This document shows positions 31,977 to 59,881 of a DNA stretch of 64,000 bases, piece by piece. How positions within the stretch are numbered: the first letter of the stretch is position 1; every line of letters begins with the position of its first letter. This DNA comes from a virus (lineage: Duplodnaviria > Caudoviricetes). Where the stretch lies: IMG/VR virus record IMGVR_UViG_3300027708_000013; one strand, written 5' to 3'. A program made the translations under genes and the position numbers. The notes beneath the pieces are model-generated. The model made no database searches. It was not told the DNA's origin and saw only the letters and a list, made by a program, of their open reading frames with translations.

Positions 31977-33895
<1,919 letters not shown>

Positions 33896-50500: not shown

Positions 50501-51787
50501 ATGCAAAAAATTGAACACACCTCCCATGCAGGTTTTACCTATGAGCCTAACAAAAAATTAGGTTATTATCTAGTGGACAAGGAAGTTTACTACAACAAAA
50601 TACAAGCACTGATTGCAGCTTCAAAAAAGAATATACCAATAAGATGGTTTTTTAACGAAGATGTATTTGTTAAATATCCCTGGCACATAGAACCTGAAGA
50701 AAACTTGCGAGAATTATATTGTCGACGTGCTCAACAATTACGTGATCAATACGACTACATTAGATTAGAGCTCAGTGGTGGTGCCGATAGTACCACTGTG
50801 GCCTATAGCTTTTTACTTAATAATATACATTTAGATGAGGTGGTGTTTCGATATCCCAAGACCGGTGACAAAGATGCATCCGGAGATCCGTCTAATACTC
50901 TGACCGAAAACACACTGAGCGAATGGGAGTTTGCGGCAAAGCCCTTGTTAAATTGGATTGCCACCAATTATCCCAAAACAAAAATCACCGTACATGACTA
51001 CAGTGAAGATATGATTACCGACGTCAACACCAAAGATGAATCATGGATTTTTCAAACCAGGCATTATTTACAGCCTAGTCATGCTAACAAATATAAACAT
51101 ATTATTAACAATAAAAATATTGCCGATCAAACACATAAAATGTGTGTAATTTATGGCATAGATAAACCTAAAATATTTGTTAGGGACAATAAAGTTTTTT
51201 TATATTTTTCAGATGGATTAACTAACCACAGTAATCAAGTAGTCGACGAGTATACTAATATTACCAACGAATTTTTTTATTGGACTCCAGATTTTCCCGA
51301 ACTAATAGCTAAACAAGCACACGAAATAAAACGTTGGTTTAGTCTTCCGCATAATCAACAAATGCAGGGAATACTACAATGGCCCAACAATGATGTTGCC
51401 AAACGTACTTTATACGAGTTGTTGGTAAAACGTATTGTGTATCCTGATTACGATTTTCATACATTCCAAACTGCAAAGCCCACCACTAATATATCCTGTA
51501 AAATGGATTATTGGTTTCACATTAATTTTAAAGATACTAAACTATATTCGGTTTGGGAATCTGGAATTAAATATTTTCTAGATAATATAGATACAAAATA
51601 TGTATGTTTAATAAACGGAAACCCAGATGAAATACAGTCATTTCAAAGTCCGTATTACTACATTGGAGATAGTATCATCGAGCAATCTAATAAGGGATTT
51701 AACACAAAATCCATATTGTTAGATCAACATCCAGACTCTACTAAAAAACATAGATATGTTATTAACGGCCAATTGGTAGTTTATTAA
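50501..51787 (+). CDS. PP-loop protein, paralogue 2 (tandem duplicate)
   Basis: LELSGGADS; long near-identical DNA blocks shared with paralogue 1. Confidence 0.75.
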   Translation: MQKIEHTSHAGFTYEPNKKLGYYLVDKEVYYNKIQALIAASKKNIPIRWFFNEDVFVKYPWHIEPEENLRELYCRRAQQLRDQYDYIRLELSGGADSTTVAYSFLLNNIHLDEVVFRYPKTGDKDASGDPSNTLTENTLSEWEFAAKPLLNWIATNYPKTKITVHDYSEDMITDVNTKDESWIFQTRHYLQPSHANKYKHIINNKNIADQTHKMCVIYGIDKPKIFVRDNKVFLYFSDGLTNHSNQVVDEYTNITNEFFYWTPDFPELIAKQAHEIKRWFSLPHNQQMQGILQWPNNDVAKRTLYELLVKRIVYPDYDFHTFQTAKPTTNISCKMDYWFHINFKDTKLYSVWESGIKYFLDNIDTKYVCLINGNPDEIQSFQSPYYYIGDSIIEQSNKGFNTKSILLDQHPDSTKKHRYVINGQLVVY

Positions 51788-51788
51788 C

Positions 51789-51878
51789 TGGCGGAGAGTG
51801 TGAGATTCGAACTCACGATACAGTTGCCCATATGTCTGCTTAGTAGGCAGATGCCATCGTCCACTCGGCCAACTCTCC
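51789..51878 (-). tRNA. tRNA-Ser(ACT)
   Basis: Class II cloverleaf, stem TCTGC/GCAGA, loop CT-ACT-AA, G73, CCA. Confidence 0.85.
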
Positions 51879-51888
51879 TGAAGTTGTT

Positions 51889-52092
51889 TTACACTTCTAC
51901 TGTGCCGTTTTGTATGGCCAACAGGGTTGAAATCAATGCATCGCTGTGTTGCAGTTCTGCACGATCTGCTGTTCTTTTATAAAGTGTTCTAGATTGTTGT
52001 GTGGCCGACAATATCATGTCGTATCTATTGCCGCCGGCGATTCTAACACATTTTTCAATATCAATTTCAGTGCCTCTGCTGATTGGTTTCAT
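51889..52092 (-). CDS. RNA polymerase omega subunit (RpoZ)-like protein
   Basis: IEKCVRIAGGNRYDMILSATQQSR...ALISTLLAIQNG resembles the omega NRYxLVL...AL.EI..G pattern; AAGGA RBS. Confidence 0.6.
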   Translation of the reverse strand: MKPISRGTEIDIEKCVRIAGGNRYDMILSATQQSRTLYKRTADRAELQHSDALISTLLAIQNGTVEV

Positions 52093-52118
52093 ACTGTTCC
52101 TTGTTCAAGTTGATTGAA

Positions 52119-52403
52119 GTACAACAGTTTGGGTACATGTATTTGCTTTACAACCGTGGACTGCTTGCCTTTGGAGAGCTACTCCTCTCGGCTTTGCAGA
52201 CAAGTACCACCACCGTGCAAGCGGCTAAATGTCAACAAGTTTCAACAGACTCTCGGACGTTTCCATGGCTTTTAAATTCTGGTGCCGCTTCGGGAATACC
52301 CGATATTGCACAATTTTCGAGCGACTCAAAGTCTTGCAATGCCACGTACTGCGCCTACCACTGGTATCAAACGGGCGTCACCCCTGTACCCAAACTGTTG
52401 TAC
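52119..52403 (-). ncRNA. Unknown multibranched structured RNA (about 285 nt)
   Basis: Perfect 19-bp terminal inverted repeat enclosing several hairpins; strand inferred from context. Confidence 0.6.
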
Positions 52404-52447
52404 TCTAGTTACTAGTGTAACATCTATCGCAATATGTGTCTAGCGTT

Positions 52448-52555
52448 TTTGATGGTTTTTGAGTCGGGAAAACCGTCAAACCCGGTGTCAACAGCCCATC
52501 CCCGGTTTCGTTGACAGCGGATGCTGATTAACAACCTTGCGGTGCGGGGTCAGCA
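52448..52555 (-). ncRNA. Unknown structured RNA with pseudoknot potential
   Basis: Three helices plus complementary loops. Confidence 0.5.
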
Positions 52556-52561
52556 ACAACT

Positions 52562-52636
52562 TGGTGGGCCAGGAAAGAATTGAACTTTCACTCCTTCGGT
52601 TATGAGCCGAACGCTTTACCATTAAGCTACTAGCCC
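52562..52636 (-). tRNA. tRNA(CAT), probably Ile2 (lysidine type)
   Basis: Loop CT-CAT-AA, GGGCTAG acceptor, A73, CCA. Confidence 0.8.
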
Positions 52637-52642
52637 GTTCGA

Positions 52643-53248
52643 TTACATTGCAGGACCGTTTCCGGACTTAAAACCTACACTACCACCCTCTGCTTCAATG
52701 CGAGCAATAACATCTTCAAACAAGATAGGAGCAAAGTCTGGAAGTTGTTCTACGCAAACGCAGTGGTATCTAACATCAATCTCATCGCTGTACAGAATTT
52801 CTCCTGTTCTAGCATCAATACCACGTGGTTTCATAACACGATTTGCGTGAGTATGTCCGTGAATGTTAACTCCGAATCGACCTAAACTATCACTGTGCAA
52901 CGGAATATGACTGAGAATCATCCCGTCCATCACATGGTAGGCACGTAATTCTCTAAAGTACTGTCTGTACTCGTCGTCCCTAAAGATATCATGGTTACCG
53001 CGGATCAACACCTTGTCACCGTTGAGTCTAGCCAATGTGGCCAATGCCCGACGGTTGATGACTACATCGCCCAAGTGATAAATCTTATCTGTGGGCTTAA
53101 CTCTTTCGTTCCAAGACTTGACCATGGCTTCGTCCATTTCATCTGGATCAGTCCAAGGACGCAGTTTTGTGACACCATCGTTACGTGTGAAGCGACATAC
53201 ACCTGCGTGTCCAAAGTGTGTATCGCTGACTAAAAATACTGCGGGCAT
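52643..53248 (-). CDS. Calcineurin-like metallophosphoesterase
   Basis: SDTHFGH, HLGDV, RGNHD, HGHTH; AAGGAG RBS; promoter TTGACC-17-TATAAT at 53271-53299. Confidence 0.88.
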   Translation of the reverse strand: MPAVFLVSDTHFGHAGVCRFTRNDGVTKLRPWTDPDEMDEAMVKSWNERVKPTDKIYHLGDVVINRRALATLARLNGDKVLIRGNHDIFRDDEYRQYFRELRAYHVMDGMILSHIPLHSDSLGRFGVNIHGHTHANRVMKPRGIDARTGEILYSDEIDVRYHCVCVEQLPDFAPILFEDVIARIEAEGGSVGFKSGNGPAM

Positions 53249-53301
53249 ATTCAACTCCTTTCTTTACAATATTATAACATGTTTGTGATTGCGGGTCAAT
53301 G

Positions 53302-53379
53302 TGGAAGTGAGAGTCGGATTCGAACCGACGGGTTGACAGCTTTGCAGGCTGTTGCATTGGACCACTCTGCCATCTCACT
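53302..53379 (-). tRNA. tRNA-Cys(GCA)
   Basis: Loop CT-GCA-AA, U73, CCA. Confidence 0.92.
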
Positions 53380-53387
53380 ACAGTTTT

Positions 53388-53461
53388 TGGCGAATCCCCA
53401 GGGAGTCGAACCCCGGCCGTCAGTTTTGGAGACTGAAATGCTACCGTAACACTTGGGACTC
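53388..53461 (-). tRNA. tRNA-Trp(CCA)
   Basis: Loop CT-CCA-AA, CCA. Confidence 0.92.
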
Positions 53462-53466
53462 ATTAT

Positions 53467-53540
53467 TGGAGCGGAATACCAGAATCGAACTGGTGACTAG
53501 ACGTTGGCAACGTTTCGTTTTACCATTAAACTAATCCCGC
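53467..53540 (-). tRNA. tRNA-Gly(GCC)
   Basis: Loop TT-GCC-AA, U73, CCA. Confidence 0.9.
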
Positions 53541-53558
53541 ATGTTATTACTTATAGTG

Positions 53559-53634
53559 TGGCGCTCTCGACCGGATTCGAACCGGTGTACTCACCGTGAA
53601 AGGGTGATGTCCTAGGCCTCTAGACGACGGGAGC
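53559..53634 (-). tRNA. tRNA-Glu(TTC)
   Basis: Loop CT-TTC-AC, CCA. Confidence 0.92.
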
Positions 53635-53641
53635 ATAAAAC

Positions 53642-53756
53642 TGGTGTTTGTGTTTGGCGCTTGAATCCACGGCAACCCTGACTCTTCATGGCCGGTCCTG
53701 ACACGTGGTCGACTTTGGTCAGTATTTCGGTGTTCCATTGTAGTTGCTACACAAAC
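53642..53756 (-). ncRNA. tRNA-like RNA with acceptor stem and CCA but no normal anticodon arm
   Basis: GTTTGTG/CACAAAC-A-CCA ends; TTCAAGC pseudo T-loop; internal GCAAC/GTTGC helix. Confidence 0.55.
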
Positions 53757-53776
53757 ATAATCTTGACAAGATACTC

Positions 53777-53850
53777 TGAAGCGGGGGCTGGATTCGAACC
53801 AACGACCTTCAGGTTATGAGCCTGGCATGCTACCGCTACACTACCCCGCA
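53777..53850 (-). tRNA. tRNA-Met(CAT), initiator-like
   Basis: T1:T72 mismatch, GCGGGG acceptor like fMet; 3' end TCA, not CCA. Confidence 0.8.
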
Positions 53851-53884
53851 TCAGAATATCCTATTTCTCTCTTACGCATAGACT

Positions 53885-54130
53885 TTAATCAAATGGTATT
53901 GGTTTTTCTGGTGTTGCTATCAACTCTTCTACTACAAATACGTCAAAATTCTTTTCATCTTCTGGATGTTTTATACAGTCCACAAACCATCCAAACTTAT
54001 AACGCCAATGATAAAATTGTCCTTCATCGGCGTTCCAACGAGCCTCTGTGGCATTACGGCATTGACCACGATAGTAAGCACCGTGGATCAAATCCTGTCG
54101 AGCAATCTTTGCCTGATATTGATCTTCCAT
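53885..54130 (-). CDS. Phage hypothetical protein (start revised to MEDQYQ)
   Basis: AAGGA RBS before ATG at 54130; GAYYRGQCRNATEARW. Confidence 0.7.
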   Translation of the reverse strand: MEDQYQAKIARQDLIHGAYYRGQCRNATEARWNADEGQFYHWRYKFGWFVDCIKHPEDEKNFDVFVVEELIATPEKPIPFD

Positions 54131-54149
54131 TATATTTTCCTTGTTGCTG

Positions 54150-54390
54150 TGTAGGCTCCGGCCACTTGCTGTCATACAAGCCCCGGAGTGGAATTCATCG
54201 TTAGCCATGTTCTCAGTCTGTAATGGCAGACAGTGTTGACCGATCAGGGCAATCAACCACCCACTTGCGTCAGCAGAGCAAGTTACCCCCGATTCAAAGC
54301 TCGGCAACTTATGACAAAACTTGGCCGGCCCCACTAGTGGGATACCATTTAAACTGGGCTGTCTTTTCGCGTTATATCCCAGTACCATGA
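54150..54390 (-). ncRNA. Unknown structured RNA or 5' leader
   Basis: Long-range helices CCGGCCA/TGGCCGG and TGTCATA/TATGACA enclosing three hairpins. Confidence 0.5.
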
Positions 54391-54392
54391 CT

Positions 54393-54467
54393 TGGCGGTC
54401 TCAAGGAGTAACGATCTCCTTCTTCAGCAGTGACAGTGCTGTGTGCGTCCATGAACACTTTGAGACC
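54393..54467 (-). tRNA. tRNA-Asp(GTC), non-canonical T-loop
   Basis: Loop CT-GTC-AC; T-loop ATCGTTA; CCA. Confidence 0.85.
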
Positions 54468-54556
54468 CAAATTAGTGACCCGGTTCGTAAACAGTATTGA
54501 TTGATTTACAGGGGCGTCAGGCCTCCAATGGACTTTTTAGGGTGCCAATTCTTTTG

Positions 54557-54657
54557 ACTATATTGAAACACACTGTTGAGATTTCACTTTTCAAGTCAGG
54601 GTCCGGATGACCAAGCGCCGCTTCTCGCAGGTAGAAAACAATGTGCTTCAATATAGT
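54557..54657 (-). ncRNA. Long-stem RNA element with AGTGAAATC motif
   Basis: About 20-bp closing stem CTATATTGAAGCACATTGTT/AACAGTGTGTTTCAATATAG plus two inner hairpins. Confidence 0.55.
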
Positions 54658-54658
54658 A

Positions 54659-54796
54659 TGTTTGTGGTAAGGATTCGCACCTTACACCACGGTTGCCCTA
54701 AATTACTCGATGATAGTCTCAACCAGTGCGGCCGCACCTTCGAGTAGTTCCACCTTTCACCCAACCGTATATACCTGTCTCTTATACGACACAAAC
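54659..54796 (-). ncRNA. tRNA-like cloverleaf with a large insertion in the anticodon loop
   Basis: GTTTGTG/CACAAAC acceptor, GTATA/TATAC D-arm, GGTTG/CAACC stem, GTAAGG-TGCGAAT-CCTTAC T-arm. Confidence 0.55.
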
Positions 54797-54800
54797 TTAC

Positions 54801-54921
54801 CATATTAAAACTATATCAATATCTTCCTTCTCTGACAAGAAGGCGTTTCGCAGTGTGTCAGCACCACCGAATGTTGACTCCGATCAGGAGTATGGCACCC
54901 GTCGATATAATTTTAATATAG
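54801..54921 (-). ncRNA. Long-stem RNA element
   Basis: Imperfect 20-bp inverted repeat enclosing hairpins CTCCTGATCGGAG and CCTTCTTGTCAGAGAAGG. Confidence 0.45.
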
Positions 54922-54955
54922 CGCCTTTCACAAGGCTTATATTTTGCTACTTGAT

Positions 54956-54967
54956 TTGTTAAAGAAC
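54956..54967 (-). promoter_or_regulatory. rrn-type boxA antitermination element
   Basis: GTTCTTTAACAA, one mismatch from rrn boxA GCTCTTTAACAA, just after a promoter. Confidence 0.65.
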
Positions 54968-54989
54968 TGTAATTTCTTACTATACATGT

Positions 54990-55018
54990 ATTATACGGTA
55001 TTGTGAATTACCAGTCAA
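54990..55018 (-). promoter_or_regulatory. Internal sigma70 promoter of the tRNA array
   Basis: TTGACT-17 bp-TATAAT. Confidence 0.85.
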
Positions 55019-55051
55019 CCAAAATACTGTTGCATATTTACAACAAATTAT

Positions 55052-55143
55052 TGGCGGAAGGCAGAAGAGTCGAACTCCATCCCCGTTAGGAGAACCTGGT
55101 TTTCAAGGCCAGTCGCAGGACCATCCCCGCTGCATTACCTTCC
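55052..55143 (-). tRNA. tRNA-Ser(TGA), 8/4 allo-tRNA-like fold
   Basis: Acceptor GGAAGGTA/TGCCTTCC (8 bp), T-stem GGAG/CTTC (4 bp), long V-arm, G73, CCA. Confidence 0.8.
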
Positions 55144-55149
55144 ATGTCT

Positions 55150-55234
55150 TGGTGGGAATGGTGAGACTCGAACTCACACGCCTTGCGGCGGCGGCTTCTA
55201 AAACCGCTTCGGCTACCAGTTACGACACATTCCC
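55150..55234 (-). tRNA. tRNA-Leu(TAG)
   Basis: Class II, loop TT-TAG-AA, A73. Confidence 0.9.
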
Positions 55235-55240
55235 GTTGTT

Positions 55241-55316
55241 TGGGGTGCTGTATGGGACTCGAACCCATACTACGAGATCCACAATCTCGGGTGCTAACCG
55301 TTACACTAACGGCACC
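55241..55316 (-). tRNA. tRNA-His(GTG)
   Basis: G-1:C73, loop TT-GTG-GA. Confidence 0.92.
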
Positions 55317-55325
55317 ACGGTTCTT

Positions 55326-55400
55326 TGGTCCGGCCAGGAAGAATCGAACTTCCGTTTAGAGATTAGAAGTCTCCTGTATTTTCCACTATACGATGGCCAG
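55326..55400 (-). tRNA. tRNA-Arg(TCT)
   Basis: Loop CT-TCT-AA, CCA. Confidence 0.9.
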
Positions 55401-55401
55401 T

Positions 55402-55486
55402 TGGTACGAGGGGAGAGATTCGAACTCTCATGCCTAACGGCGTCGGTGCTTAAAACCGGTGCGGCTACCTGTTTCGCCACCCTCGT
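55402..55486 (-). tRNA. tRNA-Leu(TAA)
   Basis: Class II, loop TT-TAA-GC. Confidence 0.88.
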
Positions 55487-55492
55487 ATTGTT

Positions 55493-55566
55493 TGGTGCTC
55501 TTACCTGGTAACGATCCAGATTTTCCGCCTTACCAAGACGGTGTAATGCCTTTATACTATAAGAGC
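55493..55566 (-). tRNA. tRNA-Thr(GGT), non-canonical T-loop
   Basis: Loop TT-GGT-AA; T-loop ATCGTTA. Confidence 0.87.
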
Positions 55567-55567
55567 T

Positions 55568-55641
55568 TGGCAGGGGTACTAGGACTTGAACCTAGAACGA
55601 CACAGTCAAAGTGTGTTGTGTTACCATTACACTATACCCCA
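55568..55641 (-). tRNA. tRNA-Gln(TTG)
   Basis: Loop CT-TTG-AC, U1-A72, G73. Confidence 0.92.
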
Positions 55642-55647
55642 ATTGTT

Positions 55648-55721
55648 TGGTAGGCCCGGAAGGTAATGCTCCTTCTTTTGCGGATTAAAAGTCCGCTACT
55701 TTACTTTTAAGTTACAAGCCC
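55648..55721 (-). tRNA. tRNA-Lys(TTT), non-canonical T-loop
   Basis: Loop CT-TTT-AA; T-loop AGCATTA. Confidence 0.85.
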
Positions 55722-55727
55722 ATAATA

Positions 55728-55804
55728 TGGCCGGCCCTGACGGATTCGAACCGCCAACTGCTGGTTTCGAAGACCAGAACTCTATCCAATTGAGCTAAGG
55801 GCCG
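55728..55804 (-). tRNA. tRNA-Arg(TCG)
   Basis: Loop CT-TCG-AA, CCA. Confidence 0.92.
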
Positions 55805-55809
55805 ATGTT

Positions 55810-55883
55810 TGGTACCCATGGGTGGAATTGAACCACCGTCGCTGCGTTATCAACACAGAGCTAAACCACTCAGCTACACGGGT
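55810..55883 (-). tRNA. tRNA-Ile(GAT)
   Basis: Loop TT-GAT-AA, A73. Confidence 0.9.
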
Positions 55884-55884
55884 A

Positions 55885-55960
55885 TGGTAGGAGATACCAG
55901 GTTCGAACTGATGACATTCTGTGTGTAAGACAGACGCTCTACCAACTGAGCTAATCTCCT
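55885..55960 (-). tRNA. tRNA-Val(TAC)
   Basis: Loop CT-TAC-AC. Confidence 0.92.
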
Positions 55961-55966
55961 ATTGTA

Positions 55967-56041
55967 TGGTCGGAGTAGAAAGAATCGAACTTTCGAAATC
56001 TCGCTCCCAAAGCGAGTGACATACCACTTGCCGATACTCCG
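55967..56041 (-). tRNA. tRNA-Pro(TGG)
   Basis: CGGAGTA acceptor, loop TT-TGG-GA. Confidence 0.92.
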
Positions 56042-56048
56042 ATAAAAC

Positions 56049-56131
56049 TGGTGCTGGAGGTGAGACTCGAACTCACGTAGGTTTCCCGACGGCTTACAAA
56101 ACCGTTGCAATTGCCGCTATGCGACTCCAGC
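56049..56131 (-). tRNA. tRNA-Thr(TGT) with an extended variable arm
   Basis: Stem ACGGT/GCCGT, loop TT-TGT-AA, variable region CGGGAAACCTAC. Confidence 0.8.
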
Positions 56132-56143
56132 GTTGAATTAATT

Positions 56144-56235
56144 TGGCAGTGAGTGTGGGATTTGAACCCACGGTACGTATTTCTACATACAACACCTTAG
56201 CAGGGTGCCGATTTAAGCCACTCATCCAACTCACT
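56144..56235 (-). tRNA. tRNA-Ser(GCT)
   Basis: Class II, loop CT-GCT-AA, G73. Confidence 0.92.
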
Positions 56236-56244
56236 ATAATTTTT

Positions 56245-56319
56245 TGGTGGAAATAGGTAGATTCGAACTACCGACCTGCGCCGTATGAAGGCGATGCACT
56301 ACCGCTGTGCTATATTTCC
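56245..56319 (-). tRNA. tRNA-Met(CAT), elongator-like
   Basis: Loop TT-CAT-AC, paired 1-72. Confidence 0.85.
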
Positions 56320-56321
56320 AA

Positions 56322-56395
56322 TGGAGCGGGATGAGAGAATCGAACTCTCAACTGGAGATTGGAAATCTCTAATTTTACCATTAAACTAATCCCGC
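56322..56395 (-). tRNA. tRNA-Gly(TCC)
   Basis: Loop TT-TCC-AA, U73. Confidence 0.9.
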
Positions 56396-56401
56396 ACGGT
56401 T

Positions 56402-56485
56402 TGGTGGAGAATACTGGGATCGAACCAGTCGTGCCTGCGGCGCCGGATTTACAGTCCAGTGCATCACCATTGATGCTTCTTCTCC
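56402..56485 (-). tRNA. tRNA-Tyr(GTA)
   Basis: Class II, loop CT-GTA-AA. Confidence 0.92.
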
Positions 56486-56491
56486 GTTACA

Positions 56492-56566
56492 TGGTGGAGG
56501 ATGAGAGAATCGAACTCTCTTGACCTACGTGCAAGGCAGGCATAATATCCAGTATATGAATCCCCC
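56492..56566 (-). tRNA. tRNA-Ala(TGC)
   Basis: G3:U70, loop CT-TGC-AC. Confidence 0.92.
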
Positions 56567-56572
56567 ATAGTA

Positions 56573-56655
56573 TGGCTCCGCGGCTAGGGCTTGAACCTAG
56601 CTAGTCTTTCGACACAGATTAACAGTCTGCTGCCACACCCGGCGGCTCCCGCGGA
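56573..56655 (-). tRNA. tRNA-Asn(GTT) with an extended variable arm and 5-bp D-stem
   Basis: Loop CT-GTT-AA; V-arm GTC-GAAA-GAC; D-arm GCCGC-CGGGT-GTGGC; G73. Confidence 0.82.
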
Positions 56656-56662
56656 ATAATTT

Positions 56663-56716
56663 ATAACACACTCCGCCACGGCGATTTCACTCCCACCTGG
56701 TTCCAGAATGTGTATA
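56663..56716 (-). ncRNA. Hairpin element with AGTGAAATC motif
   Basis: ACACATTCTG/CGGAGTGTGT stem; related to 54557-54657. Confidence 0.45.
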
Positions 56717-56810
56717 GTCGAACACTCGGGAGTGAGACTTGCACTCACACAGCAGGCTCTCATCGTCCCGCATCCTAGCATTAGATCATCCCAAATGCTC
56801 GACTATATAC
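56712..56810 (-). ncRNA. Pseudo-tRNA cloverleaf on an extended stem
   Basis: Cloverleaf 56725-56795 with T-loop TGCAAGT and 10-nt anticodon loop; acceptor extended by AGTCGAGCA/TGTTCGACT. Confidence 0.5.
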
Positions 56811-56909
56811 TGATTTTTCACACTACACAAAGTGCTCCATCCTAGTATCCGCCCGTTCAACATGTTATCTTTATAGTGCCCTGTCATGGACCTCGTTTCC
56901 GAGACACTT

Positions 56910-56943
56910 AAAACAAAAAACCCTGGAGTTGTTAGTTCCAGGG
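56910..56943 (-). terminator. Intrinsic terminator of the putative attenuator
   Basis: CCCTGGA-ACTAACAAC-TCCAGGG followed by TTTTTTGTTTT. Confidence 0.85.
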
Positions 56944-56991
56944 TCTTAGATAAAATATAAAATGGATTAAATCTTATCTAAGACCCCCGGG
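56941..56991 (-). promoter_or_regulatory. Putative antiterminator hairpin
   Basis: Perfect 13-bp GGGTCTTAGATAA/TTATCTAAGACCC; the 3' arm shares CCC(TGG) with the terminator 5' arm. Confidence 0.75.
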
Positions 56992-57111
56992 TTCACGATT
57001 GCTGTTGCTGTCAATTGACATCGCTATCGTTGCAAACTGTAGCCAATTGGCCAACACGCCTGATGTTTTCGGCTGTGCATGTAAACAAGTGGTATAGTTT
57101 CTTAATTTCAT
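56974..57111 (-). CDS. Putative leader (attenuator) peptide, 45 aa, containing all 20 amino acids
   Basis: Manual translation MKLRNYTTCLHAQPKTSGVLANWLQFATIAMSIDSNSNREPGGLR*; stop codon lies in the antiterminator 5' arm. Confidence 0.7.
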   Translation of the reverse strand: MKLRNYTTCLHAQPKTSGVLANWLQFATIAMSIDSNSNREPGGLR

Positions 57112-57120
57112 AATATATCT

Positions 57121-57149
57121 AGTATAGTTTATTTAGCATTTTGTGTCAA
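57121..57149 (-). promoter_or_regulatory. Sigma70 promoter (with embedded late motif CTAAATA) of the leader/tRNA operon
   Basis: TTGACA-17 bp-TATACT; only 9 nt from the -10 to the leader ATG. Confidence 0.88.
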
Positions 57150-57193
57150 GTATGTTTGGTTAAATAGTTGTTGCGTAAACGCAACAGATTTAA

Positions 57194-57784
57194 TCAAGTT
57201 GGTTTTTTCAGTAAAAAAGTCACAATACATCTATCTGTCAAATGGAACCAGTCTGAGCCAGGCTTTATTACTCCTTGTTCTGTTATTTCAAATAAATTTT
57301 TAAAATTATTCTGCCAACGGTTGACCTCTGCTTCAAAACTAAATTCGGGATGGTTGCTCCAGACTACTACCGATACAAAAACATAATCTTGAGTTAAACG
57401 ATGTAATTCATTTATTGTGTGTGCTAATAATTCTTCATTTAATAAATGTATTACAAGATTACACATTACAAAATCATACTGTCCGTCAGGATAATGATTG
57501 TATTTTTCAATGTAAGGATCATATCGTGTATACTGTATGTTGGGAAAATGCTGTTGAAGATTTTCAATAAATGTCGACTCACCGCACCCATAATCTAGTA
57601 TAGTTTTAGGATTAATTTTAGGTATCAACTGCTGAATTGATACTCCTTCATGCAGGCGATAATACTTGGATCTCCCCCAGTCCAGTGGATATTGATCGGC
57701 AAATTCTCCTGAGTAGATTTTTTTTATATATTTGCCTAGGTCATCAAATCCCAGGGTTTTCATTATGTTTCTTTTGAAGATCAT
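57194..57784 (-). CDS. Class I SAM-dependent methyltransferase
   Basis: ILDYGCGES, YDPY, FVMCNLVIHL. Confidence 0.8.
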   Translation of the reverse strand: MIFKRNIMKTLGFDDLGKYIKKIYSGEFADQYPLDWGRSKYYRLHEGVSIQQLIPKINPKTILDYGCGESTFIENLQQHFPNIQYTRYDPYIEKYNHYPDGQYDFVMCNLVIHLLNEELLAHTINELHRLTQDYVFVSVVVWSNHPEFSFEAEVNRWQNNFKNLFEITEQGVIKPGSDWFHLTDRCIVTFLLKKPT

Positions 57785-58950
57785 CTATTACCCTGGTCTA
57801 GGTCAGGTGCATCTCCAAGACAGTAGAACGGACTTAAAAATCCAACGAATCCCACTGCACAATCAAATTCTTTATTAAAATACTTGTCATCCACTGTGTT
57901 TTCAAGTAGCGTTAATCCTGCTTTCCAATTTATGTATGCTGTAGAATCTTTAAGATTTTTGTAGAACCAGTAGTCCATTTCTGGATAGAAATTATTAGTC
58001 GGCTTACTGACTTGGAATGTGGTTGGATCCCAATTGGTATAGATCAATGGTCTGATTATATGTTCAAATGTAGTGCGTTGTGCTACAGAGTGATTTGGCC
58101 ATCGTACCAAATGTTGTAAAAACTGGTTTTGTTTTGCGGAAAACCAGTTTTTAATTATATGTGCTTGTTTATGTAAAATTTCAGGAAAATCTGGGGTCCA
58201 ATAGAAATATTCATTGGTCAAGTTGTTGTATTCGTACATTACGGAATTAGAATGGTTGGCTTGAAAGTCGATGAAATATGCATACCATTTTCCATCTTTA
58301 ATACAAATCTTGGGTTTGTCAATGCCATAAAGAATACAAATACTTTTCCCTGTATCGGCTAATTTATGGTGACCATCAAAACTGATATTATCATGTTTAA
58401 ATGCATGACTTGGCTGTAAAAAATCTTTTGCTCTAAAAATCCATGTTTCGTCGAGATCTGCATTGATCATGTCTTGGCTAAAATCGTGAACAGTAATTTT
58501 AGTAGCGGGGCTTACCTTGGCGATCCATTTTAATGCAGGTTTTGTGGCATACTCATATTCACTTAGGAAGTTTTCTGGTTTACTATTATACGGATTTGGA
58601 TCCATATTATGAGTACCTGATTCGGGATAACGAAATACTACTTCATCTAGAGTAATATTGTTAAGTAAAAAACTAAACAGTATTGTAGTGGAATCTGCTC
58701 CCCCACTAAACTCTAGTCTAATGTAATCATATCTGTCTCGTAGTTGCTGTGCCCGTAATCGATACATTTCGTTTATATCAACCTGTGGCTCTACTAGCCA
58801 ATCAAGTGCACCAAACACGTCATTATTAAAATTCCAATGCGGAAATTGATTTGTTTTTGTTGCCAACATCAATGCATCAACTTTACTGTAGATGCATTGA
58901 TCCCCTACAGTGTAAAACCCCAGCTTTGGATTGTTATCAAAGGTAAACAA
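57781..58950 (-). CDS. PP-loop protein, paralogue 3
   Basis: LEFSGGADS; shares YGIDKPKI and NEYFYWTPDFP with paralogues 1 and 2. Confidence 0.75.
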   Translation of the reverse strand: MFTFDNNPKLGFYTVGDQCIYSKVDALMLATKTNQFPHWNFNNDVFGALDWLVEPQVDINEMYRLRAQQLRDRYDYIRLEFSGGADSTTILFSFLLNNITLDEVVFRYPESGTHNMDPNPYNSKPENFLSEYEYATKPALKWIAKVSPATKITVHDFSQDMINADLDETWIFRAKDFLQPSHAFKHDNISFDGHHKLADTGKSICILYGIDKPKICIKDGKWYAYFIDFQANHSNSVMYEYNNLTNEYFYWTPDFPEILHKQAHIIKNWFSAKQNQFLQHLVRWPNHSVAQRTTFEHIIRPLIYTNWDPTTFQVSKPTNNFYPEMDYWFYKNLKDSTAYINWKAGLTLLENTVDDKYFNKEFDCAVGFVGFLSPFYCLGDAPDLDQGNR

Positions 58951-58969: not shown

Positions 58970-59881
58970 TTATTTTAAAACAATTTCAGATGTAATTTGT
59001 TTCCAAATAAAATTTTGTTTATTAAACCATGGCTGTATGCGGTCGTCACTCATCTGATTGAGAGACTGACAACGATGGGCAAAATATGCCTTATCCAGTG
59101 CAGGACTACGTCCGGCTTTTACCAAAATATCACGCCATTCTTTTGCCTTTTTGGCCGGCACCTGATTGGAGATGACCAGGTGCGATGGTGCATTCATTTG
59201 GCTTAGTATTTTTGGAAATCCATTACTGACTAGTGTTGGAATTTTATCAATGGCTTTTTCGCCGGTGATGCCTAGGTTATACAATTTATTTTTTTCTTCT
59301 GTGGCAGTTACATATTGTTCGCTGTCACCTATAAAAGCCACTGAGAAATCCGTAGTGCCACTCAGCGTTGCTAAAACAGCATCAGTTGTACTTTTAAAAG
59401 GAACCACAATCATATTGGGATATTTTTTAGCAACCTCGGTGGCCACTAAGTGAGTGGTAATACCCAGTCCACTGACAGAGATTGTCAGTGGCCGATCAGT
59501 GGGGACATCTTTCCACGATTTATATTTCTTAGCAAATACACCAAGCGGTGCATCGCAGTCTGGCATCAACTGCTGAAAATCTTCCACACGATGACTTTCG
59601 TTGGGGAAAAAGTTTGGACGAATCCAAAACGCAGAGCTGGTTGCTAAAATGGTATTTGGAGTTTTAGCAACATACTGAGCTGCAATACTAGCACCGGCAC
59701 CAGGTTTGGTATCAAAAATAAATGTGTATTGGTCCTGAATCTTATTTGCTTCTTGTGCCAGTGTGCGACTAAAATTGGCGGCTATATCACTTGGGCTCCA
59801 GCCATATATAATTGTTACTGTTTCTCGGGCGTGAGTGGTTAATGTGAAAGTGGCTAGCAAAATTGCTAAAATTTTTTTCAT
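58970..59881 (-). CDS. Bug/TctC-family periplasmic solute receptor
   Basis: Signal peptide; GWSP...RTLA...DTKPGAGASIA; VPFKSTTDAVLATLSG. Confidence 0.8.
   Translation of the reverse strand: MKKILAILLATFTLTTHARETVTIIYGWSPSDIAANFSRTLAQEANKIQDQYTFIFDTKPGAGASIAAQYVAKTPNTILATSSAFWIRPNFFPNESHRVEDFQQLMPDCDAPLGVFAKKYKSWKDVPTDRPLTISVSGLGITTHLVATEVAKKYPNMIVVPFKSTTDAVLATLSGTTDFSVAFIGDSEQYVTATEEKNKLYNLGITGEKAIDKIPTLVSNGFPKILSQMNAPSHLVISNQVPAKKAKEWRDILVKAGRSPALDKAYFAHRCQSLNQMSDDRIQPWFNKQNFIWKQITSEIVLK

Follow-up and report, generated by a model that had tools for sequence, protein, structure and literature searches.

The window analysed here is a stretch of 64,000 nucleotides from an uncultured freshwater jumbo phage, the same DNA having been seen in freshwater and lake metagenomes. 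The feature under study lies wholly on the minus strand and comprises, in order of transcription, a promoter, a short leader reading frame (ORF1), a long hairpin (H1), an intrinsic terminator, a conserved structured RNA and a region of tRNA genes. The promoter (57121..57149) is of the sigma70 type, with a TTGACA box at 57149-57144, a 17-nt spacer holding TAAATAAA and a TATACT box at 57126-57121. It scores 11/12, is the best promoter match within 51-58.5 kb, and lies where the original prediction, made from the letters of the window, had placed it. The notion that the conserved TAAATAAA spacer marks a generic phage promoter was rejected, as TTGAC followed by TAAATAAA has a single occurrence in the whole 64 kb. 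Immediately 5' of the -35 box, and directly after a methyltransferase gene, is a separate hairpin, TGTTGCG-TTTA-CGCAACA (57169-57186, minus strand), which could be the end of the upstream operon or an operator; similar GTTG...CAAC hairpins are found in 10 of 35 relatives.

ORF1 (57111-56974, minus strand) consists of 45 codons followed by TAA. Its ATG, at 57111, is 9 nt past the -10 box and is not preceded by a Shine-Dalgarno (SD) sequence, so that a leaderless or near-leaderless mRNA is expected. A recount of the frame gave the same totals as had been claimed for it, namely each of the 20 amino acids and 35 different codons, among them the four Thr codons, ATA, AGA and CTA. Among 45-residue segments of the phage's own long ORFs, by comparison, 20 amino acids are present in 1.8% and at least 35 distinct codons in 0.6%.

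The last codons of ORF1, together with the TAA stop, form the 5' arm of H1 (56941..56986, minus strand), in which GGGTCTTAGATAA (56986-56974) pairs with TTATCTAAGACCC (56953-56941). The arms make the 13 perfect pairs that had been predicted, and RNAfold extends the helix to approximately 17 bp. The intrinsic terminator (56910..56943, minus strand) consists of CCCTGGA (56943-56937), a 9-nt loop, TCCAGGG (56927-56921) and a T6GT4 tract (56920-56910); like the promoter, it is of E. coli type. Its stem is 7 bp long, and the CCC at 56943-56941 is common to H1 and the terminator, as proposed. It had further been suggested that the shared stretch could be extended to CCCTGG. Within the hairpin the CCC does pair perfectly, but pairing of the full CCCTGG needs a G-U pair and a mismatch.

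The fold of the leader RNA beats all 200 shuffles (z = -4.3), and the minimum-energy fold has the long hairpin whole and the terminator down to three pairs. Because the two helices overlap by only 3 nt in the window, and the two states lie 2.5 kcal/mol apart, a switch built from them could be leaky in either direction. In the folds, hairpins upstream of H1 are weak and not conserved. One 151-nt contig, from a metatranscriptome library of a lake (run X10), matches the window at 100% identity over 56828-56977, a stretch that runs from the stop codon through the hairpin and the terminator to 82 nt past the latter. The contig may represent a read-through transcript or DNA carry-over; the metatranscriptome contigs on the phage are scattered and have a depth of 2-6, at which RNA is indistinguishable from DNA carry-over.

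The first transcribed element past the terminator is a conserved structured RNA (56656..56909, minus strand). The tRNA array had been thought to follow the terminator directly, which is not the case: the tRNA-Asn gene starts at 56655, and the structured RNA fills the approximately 255 nt between it and the T-tract. This RNA opens with a covarying hairpin with an AACGAGG loop, followed by the CACTATAAA and AACGGGCGG motifs, and of the 28 pairs predicted for it by RNAalifold, 21 show compensatory changes. Rfam gave no match, T-box included, up to E = 1 for the leader or the spacer of the window and five relatives, and within the structured RNA ARAGORN at relaxed settings made only a weak, intron-containing call.

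The tRNA region (51789..56655, minus strand), which is presumed to be the regulated target, holds 24 tRNAs called by ARAGORN and three that the default settings missed (56405-56485, 55651-55721 and 55056-55143, minus strand), these being Tyr(GTA), Lys(TTT) and a Sec-like tRNA. The Tyr(GTA) and Lys(TTT) tRNAs were found at a relaxed ARAGORN threshold, and the Sec-like tRNA has an 8-bp acceptor stem and an anticodon loop, CUUGAAA, that corresponds to Ser(UGA). The window yielded no tRNA-Phe. An intrinsic terminator at 50975..51006 (minus strand) closes the region, and is the only other minus-strand terminator in 50.5-57.3 kb. We found no sigma70-like promoter on the minus strand between the leader terminator and 55018. 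Inside the tRNA region are two sigma70-like promoters, each scoring 11/12 (55018-54990 and 53299-53271, minus strand); no cassette of leader ORF and terminator lies behind either, and no further leader cassettes were found upstream of the inner tRNA blocks of the window.

Searches for relatives of the window gave no match by blastn of the region against the INPHARED phage collection, nor by tblastn of the neighbouring PP-loop protein against the same collection. Protein searches found no homologue of ORF1, probably because genes so small are not called, and no relatives were obtained with the methyltransferase neighbour as a query. The relatives examined here are IMG/VR jumbo-phage contigs of up to 374 kb, and homologues of the PP-loop-like protein, with its SGGADS motif, were used to locate them. 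The gene for this protein (57781-58950) adjoins the tRNA region; the window phage also encodes a Cpn60/GroEL-family chaperonin (31977-33596) and a TctC-family periplasmic binding protein (58970-59881), all three on the minus strand. One close relative, L001, has a leader 91% identical to that of the window, with identical hairpins. The changes between the two in ORF1 are mostly synonymous, together with one in-frame 3-nt deletion, which argues that the ORF1 frame is read.

A search with a degenerate terminator pattern gave 15 distinct units, 14 of which have tRNA genes 290-730 nt downstream. For a second search we used a motif of the RNA 3' of the terminator, and since the motif is downstream RNA, the units that it finds were not chosen by their terminators. 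At least 119 IMG/VR loci matched, from which 101 distinct units with enough upstream sequence were retained. In 89 of the 101, a small ORF has its stop 15-40 nt ahead of an intrinsic terminator; this range is the criterion that defines the 89-unit set, and the distance is mostly 26-31 nt. Across these 89 units ORF1 has 28-67 codons (median 46), and the terminator stems differ widely in sequence. The leaderless arrangement of the promoter (-10 box, usually approximately 7 nt, ATG) is found in 35 related units and an SD-led start in 27. Scanning genome contigs with the RNA motif gave chance matches in GC-rich genomes, and a single locus of 120 was genuine (L160, a 1.9-kb contig binned to a Bacteroidetes MAG); with this as the only genuine case, the scan provides no host clue.

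A conserved register of ORF stop and hairpin was among the checks that the original prediction proposed, and the register is kept in 88 of the 89 units. When we folded the nascent RNA, that is, the RNA cut before the 3' arm of the terminator, 4-11 nt of the terminator 5' arm paired in these 88 units with a strand in the last 2-14 codons of ORF1. A test that is free of folding measured the complementary runs that the last 12 codons can form with the arm region; the longest run has a mean of 7.0, versus 4.05 for an adjacent control segment of the ORF, and in 94% of units the unit's own arm beats foreign arm types. Covariation, also put forward as a check on the prediction, was examined in an alignment of 47 representatives (A5) with 500 shuffles. 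For the antiterminator basal helix and for the terminator helix alike, none of the 500 shuffles reaches the observed covariation. In the relatives 98.8% of the terminator cells are paired, two-sided changes are seen in 6 of its 7 pairs, and the U-tract is present. Column 80, which corresponds to base four in the arm of the terminator, pairs with column 5 (AU 21, GC 11, GU 8) and also with column 100 (UA 19, CG 16, UG 11). Because one column covaries with two partners, we conclude that there are two alternative helices, and that both are under selection.

The 5' strand of the antiterminator, (A)GGGTYC, is present in all three reading frames among the units. The last 12 codons have a dN/dS of 0.88, without third-position bias, and the constraint on the tail is thus on the RNA and not on the peptide; for the upstream part dN/dS is 0.41. 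The two RNA states are of near-equal energy (-26.0 versus -25.0 kcal/mol), and in naked RNA the shared bases lie in the antiterminator in 74 of 85 units.

All 20 amino acids are present in 59 of the 89 leaders, and 19 amino acids in 19 more, where length-matched segments from the proteins of the same phages lead to an expectation of 3.0 complete leaders. This excess survives clustering (23 of 40 clusters are complete at 50% identity and 13 of 24 at 40%), and completeness is therefore not inherited position by position. Cys occurs in 89% of leaders versus 45% expected, usually once, and is spread across 29 alignment columns; His (99% versus 70%) and internal Met (96% versus 64%) both behave as Cys does. 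Common residues, among them Asp, Lys, Tyr, Phe and Leu, are fewer per leader than expected, and the composition is flattened. Trp alone among the rare residues keeps its position, standing in one column in 93% of its occurrences, usually as A-Y-W (alignment A3), and the largest cluster has a DRTPE motif immediately ahead of the antiterminator strand.

The diversity extends from amino acids to codons. The original prediction had cautioned that 35 distinct codons is only slightly above the approximately 32 expected for uniform codon use, a caveat that can be lifted, as against the real codon usage of the phages the number of distinct codons gives z = +2.4 and every unit lies above expectation. 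Y/R decoding classes are likewise over-sampled (z = +2.8), and both codon boxes are present for Ser in 96%, for Leu in 84% and for Arg in 79% of leaders, with 50, 66 and 31% expected. Consistent with what had been proposed, the diversity of the ORF1 frame exceeds not only that of the length-matched controls but also that of the other two frames (16.7-16.8 distinct amino acids, versus 19.6 in the ORF1 frame) and that of a second small reading frame, ORF2, described below (a mean of 16.3 in 57 copies, none of them complete). The approximately 33-40 codons that precede the antiterminator strand by themselves encode 18-20 different residues.

In the window, the leader reads 24 of the 25 phage anticodon species, Arg-TCG alone being missed, where random segments read 18.1 +/- 2.1 (P ~0.001); the claim that it samples the tRNA classes holds for nearly all of them. 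A separate idea, that the leader is enriched in codons readable by the phage tRNAs, was rejected (37 of 45 versus a background of 78%, P = 0.32). In the window leader the sole Glu codon is codon 40, which precedes the antiterminator strand by two codons. In the family as a whole Glu is the residue most often confined to the leader tail, and it is often found only beside or within the antiterminator strand, where stalling may not lead to read-through. Amino acids found only in the last codons, such as Glu in the window, are probably not sensed. We conclude that the leader is selected for completeness.

The sequence beyond the terminator in the relatives bears on whether the terminator is ever passed. 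Of 85 relatives, 57 have an SD-led ORF2 whose start lies within approximately 45 nt of the T-tract, usually approximately 10-15 nt past it. Such a start leaves no room for a promoter after the T-tract, so read-through must occur in nature. ORF2 encodes 51-60 aa with the motif HTLTxEQLxKLIxxKxERAE (for example at L006:8612-8773, L023:6047-6208 and L001:10477-10650) and is absent from the window; in phages carrying it, it is probably the first gene controlled by the switch. Pfam and PHROGs gave no family above threshold for either ORF1 or ORF2.

The anatomy of the unit, its conservation, the covariation of both helices and the completeness of the leader are demonstrated by these comparisons. Reading them together, we propose, with a probability of roughly 0.7, that the unit is a ribosome-mediated transcription attenuator which stands at the head of the tRNA region and tests the general supply of tRNA. 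RNA polymerase would start at the sigma70 promoter, and a ribosome would load immediately on the near-leaderless AUG. A ribosome that passes through the 45 codons undelayed would cover the last codons and the stop, which are the 5' strand of H1, as the polymerase makes the terminator. With H1 blocked by the ribosome, the terminator would retain its CCC and transcription would stop. If instead the ribosome is delayed upstream, by a scarce aminoacyl-tRNA or by impaired translation, or is absent altogether, H1 would form first and capture 3-7 nt of the terminator 5' arm, and the polymerase would continue into the structured RNA and the tRNA genes. A leader with every amino acid and nearly every phage tRNA species would in this manner test the whole decoding supply. 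Any shortage would then raise the output of the tRNA region, and the unit would therefore act as negative feedback on decoding capacity. Put simply, these phages probably make more tRNAs when ribosomes lag on any codon. Translation of ORF1, the kinetics of coupling, the direction of regulation and the physiological trigger are the parts of this scheme that we infer.

The scheme resembles known forms of attenuation to differing degrees. The trpL, hisL, leuL, thrL, ilvL, pheL and pheST leaders are enterobacterial leader-peptide transcription attenuators. With the trpL/hisL/pheST type the unit shares a short ORF close to the promoter, an intrinsic terminator ahead of the target genes and an antiterminator that has bases in common with the terminator; in the known leaders the position of the ribosome decides between the helices, which here is so by geometry only. 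It differs from that type in its target, a tRNA array and structured RNA rather than biosynthetic or synthetase genes, and in having no run of a single amino acid, with each amino acid and nearly every tRNA class occurring instead approximately one to three times. Because there is no run of any one amino acid, we regard the leader as a variant and not as a member of the classical attenuators. Compared with trp, the design has two helices, without an evident 1:2 pause/anti-antiterminator hairpin, and the absence of translation should therefore give read-through. The leaderless mRNA of 35 units is a further difference from the enterobacterial leaders.

The ilvGMEDA leader (Leu/Val/Ile) and the thr leader (Thr/Ile) are multivalent and have repeated codons. 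Like these, the phage unit combines several amino acids in one leader, but it has all 20, with flattened counts, in place of two or three. A T-box riboswitch similarly couples read-through to the state of the tRNA pool; its RNA, however, binds one uncharged tRNA directly and without an ORF, and the unit has no Rfam T-box match. In the coupling-dependent attenuation of pyrBI and pyrE, as would be the case here, formation of the terminator depends on how far the lead ribosome is from RNA polymerase. The sign is reversed, as a close ribosome prevents termination in pyrBI/pyrE and should permit it in the phage unit.

An alternative reading takes ORF1 for an ordinary gene of a small protein, with a promoter and a terminator of its own, and H1 for a hairpin that stabilises or processes its mRNA; the tRNAs would then be transcribed from other, perhaps phage-specific, promoters or by leak. 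Purifying selection over the first two thirds of the ORF1 peptide (the dN/dS of 0.41) is what a protein gene would show, and the fixed Trp and the DRTPE motif could be read in the same way. A conserved element right past the terminator (GAAACGAGGTC ... CACTATAAA) could moreover hide a non-sigma70 promoter, and a phage-specific promoter may lie past the terminator; that element, however, is a covarying RNA hairpin. ORF1 falls in no Pfam or PHROG family, and a protein gene leaves unexplained why all 20 amino acids and, for Ser, Leu and Arg, both codon boxes are kept while the rare residues shift in position. Equally unexplained would be a terminator arm that covaries with a strand inside the ORF whatever its reading frame, and the SD-led ORF2 that starts so soon after the T-tract in most relatives. 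We consider this reading unlikely.

The same Trp and DRTPE motif raise a second alternative, in which there is a real switch, but one operated by a nascent arrest or sensor peptide that responds to one ligand or factor, in the manner of TnaC or SpeFL. Trp and Pro are key residues of known arrest peptides, and the near-invariant column of the Trp, the position of DRTPE immediately ahead of the antiterminator strand in the largest cluster and the low upstream dN/dS would all suit such a peptide. The distance from the Trp to the stop nevertheless varies (approximately 17-26 residues), unlike the fixed spacing of TnaC, and on this ground a TnaC-like arrest, read from a W-F-x-I-D resemblance in one relative (L008), was dropped. 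DRTPE, for its part, is missing from many clusters that retain both the switch and completeness, and the selection for having every amino acid and decoding class would go unexplained. Arrest on a single ligand or factor seems to us quite improbable. The fixed Trp and DRTPE are nonetheless unneeded by a pure codon sampler, and with the dN/dS of 0.41 they suggest a further role of the peptide or its mRNA. It is very unlikely that the paired hairpins instead serve RNA processing or decay, for instance as the point where RNase III or RNase E enters, and part the leader mRNA from the tRNA precursor with no conditional termination. A long imperfect hairpin does adjoin the tRNA precursor, and tRNA operons commonly have processing sites at their heads. 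The second hairpin, however, has a canonical GC-rich stem and at least six U, conserved with covariation, the helices are mutually exclusive rather than side by side, and the stop codon is in fixed register to both.

Returning to the attenuator that tests general tRNA supply, the original prediction had gone further and cast it as an inducible anti-defence circuit. As a sensor for counter-defence, the leader would respond to the cleavage or depletion of any one host tRNA by an anticodon nuclease or another tRNA-targeting defence (PrrC, PARIS and retrons had been named), which would stall the lead ribosome and switch on the complete replacement set of phage tRNAs, along with the conserved RNA and tRNA mimics 3' of the terminator. 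We hold this to be a tentative possibility, and a doubtful one.

A full-text literature search brought up no account of phage tRNA genes being attenuated through a leader peptide, nor of a leader with all the amino acids, and a search of the literature on the control by phages of their own tRNA genes found no paper. The new elements here are the counts across the whole family, the double covariation and the evidence for selection of completeness. If the attenuator reading is true, textbook attenuation would extend to tRNA genes, and this would be the first leader selected for every amino acid and nearly every tRNA class, reading overall translation capacity. The finding would then bear on the reason for the near-complete tRNA sets of jumbo phages, and on the contest of phage tRNAs with the host defences that cleave tRNA.
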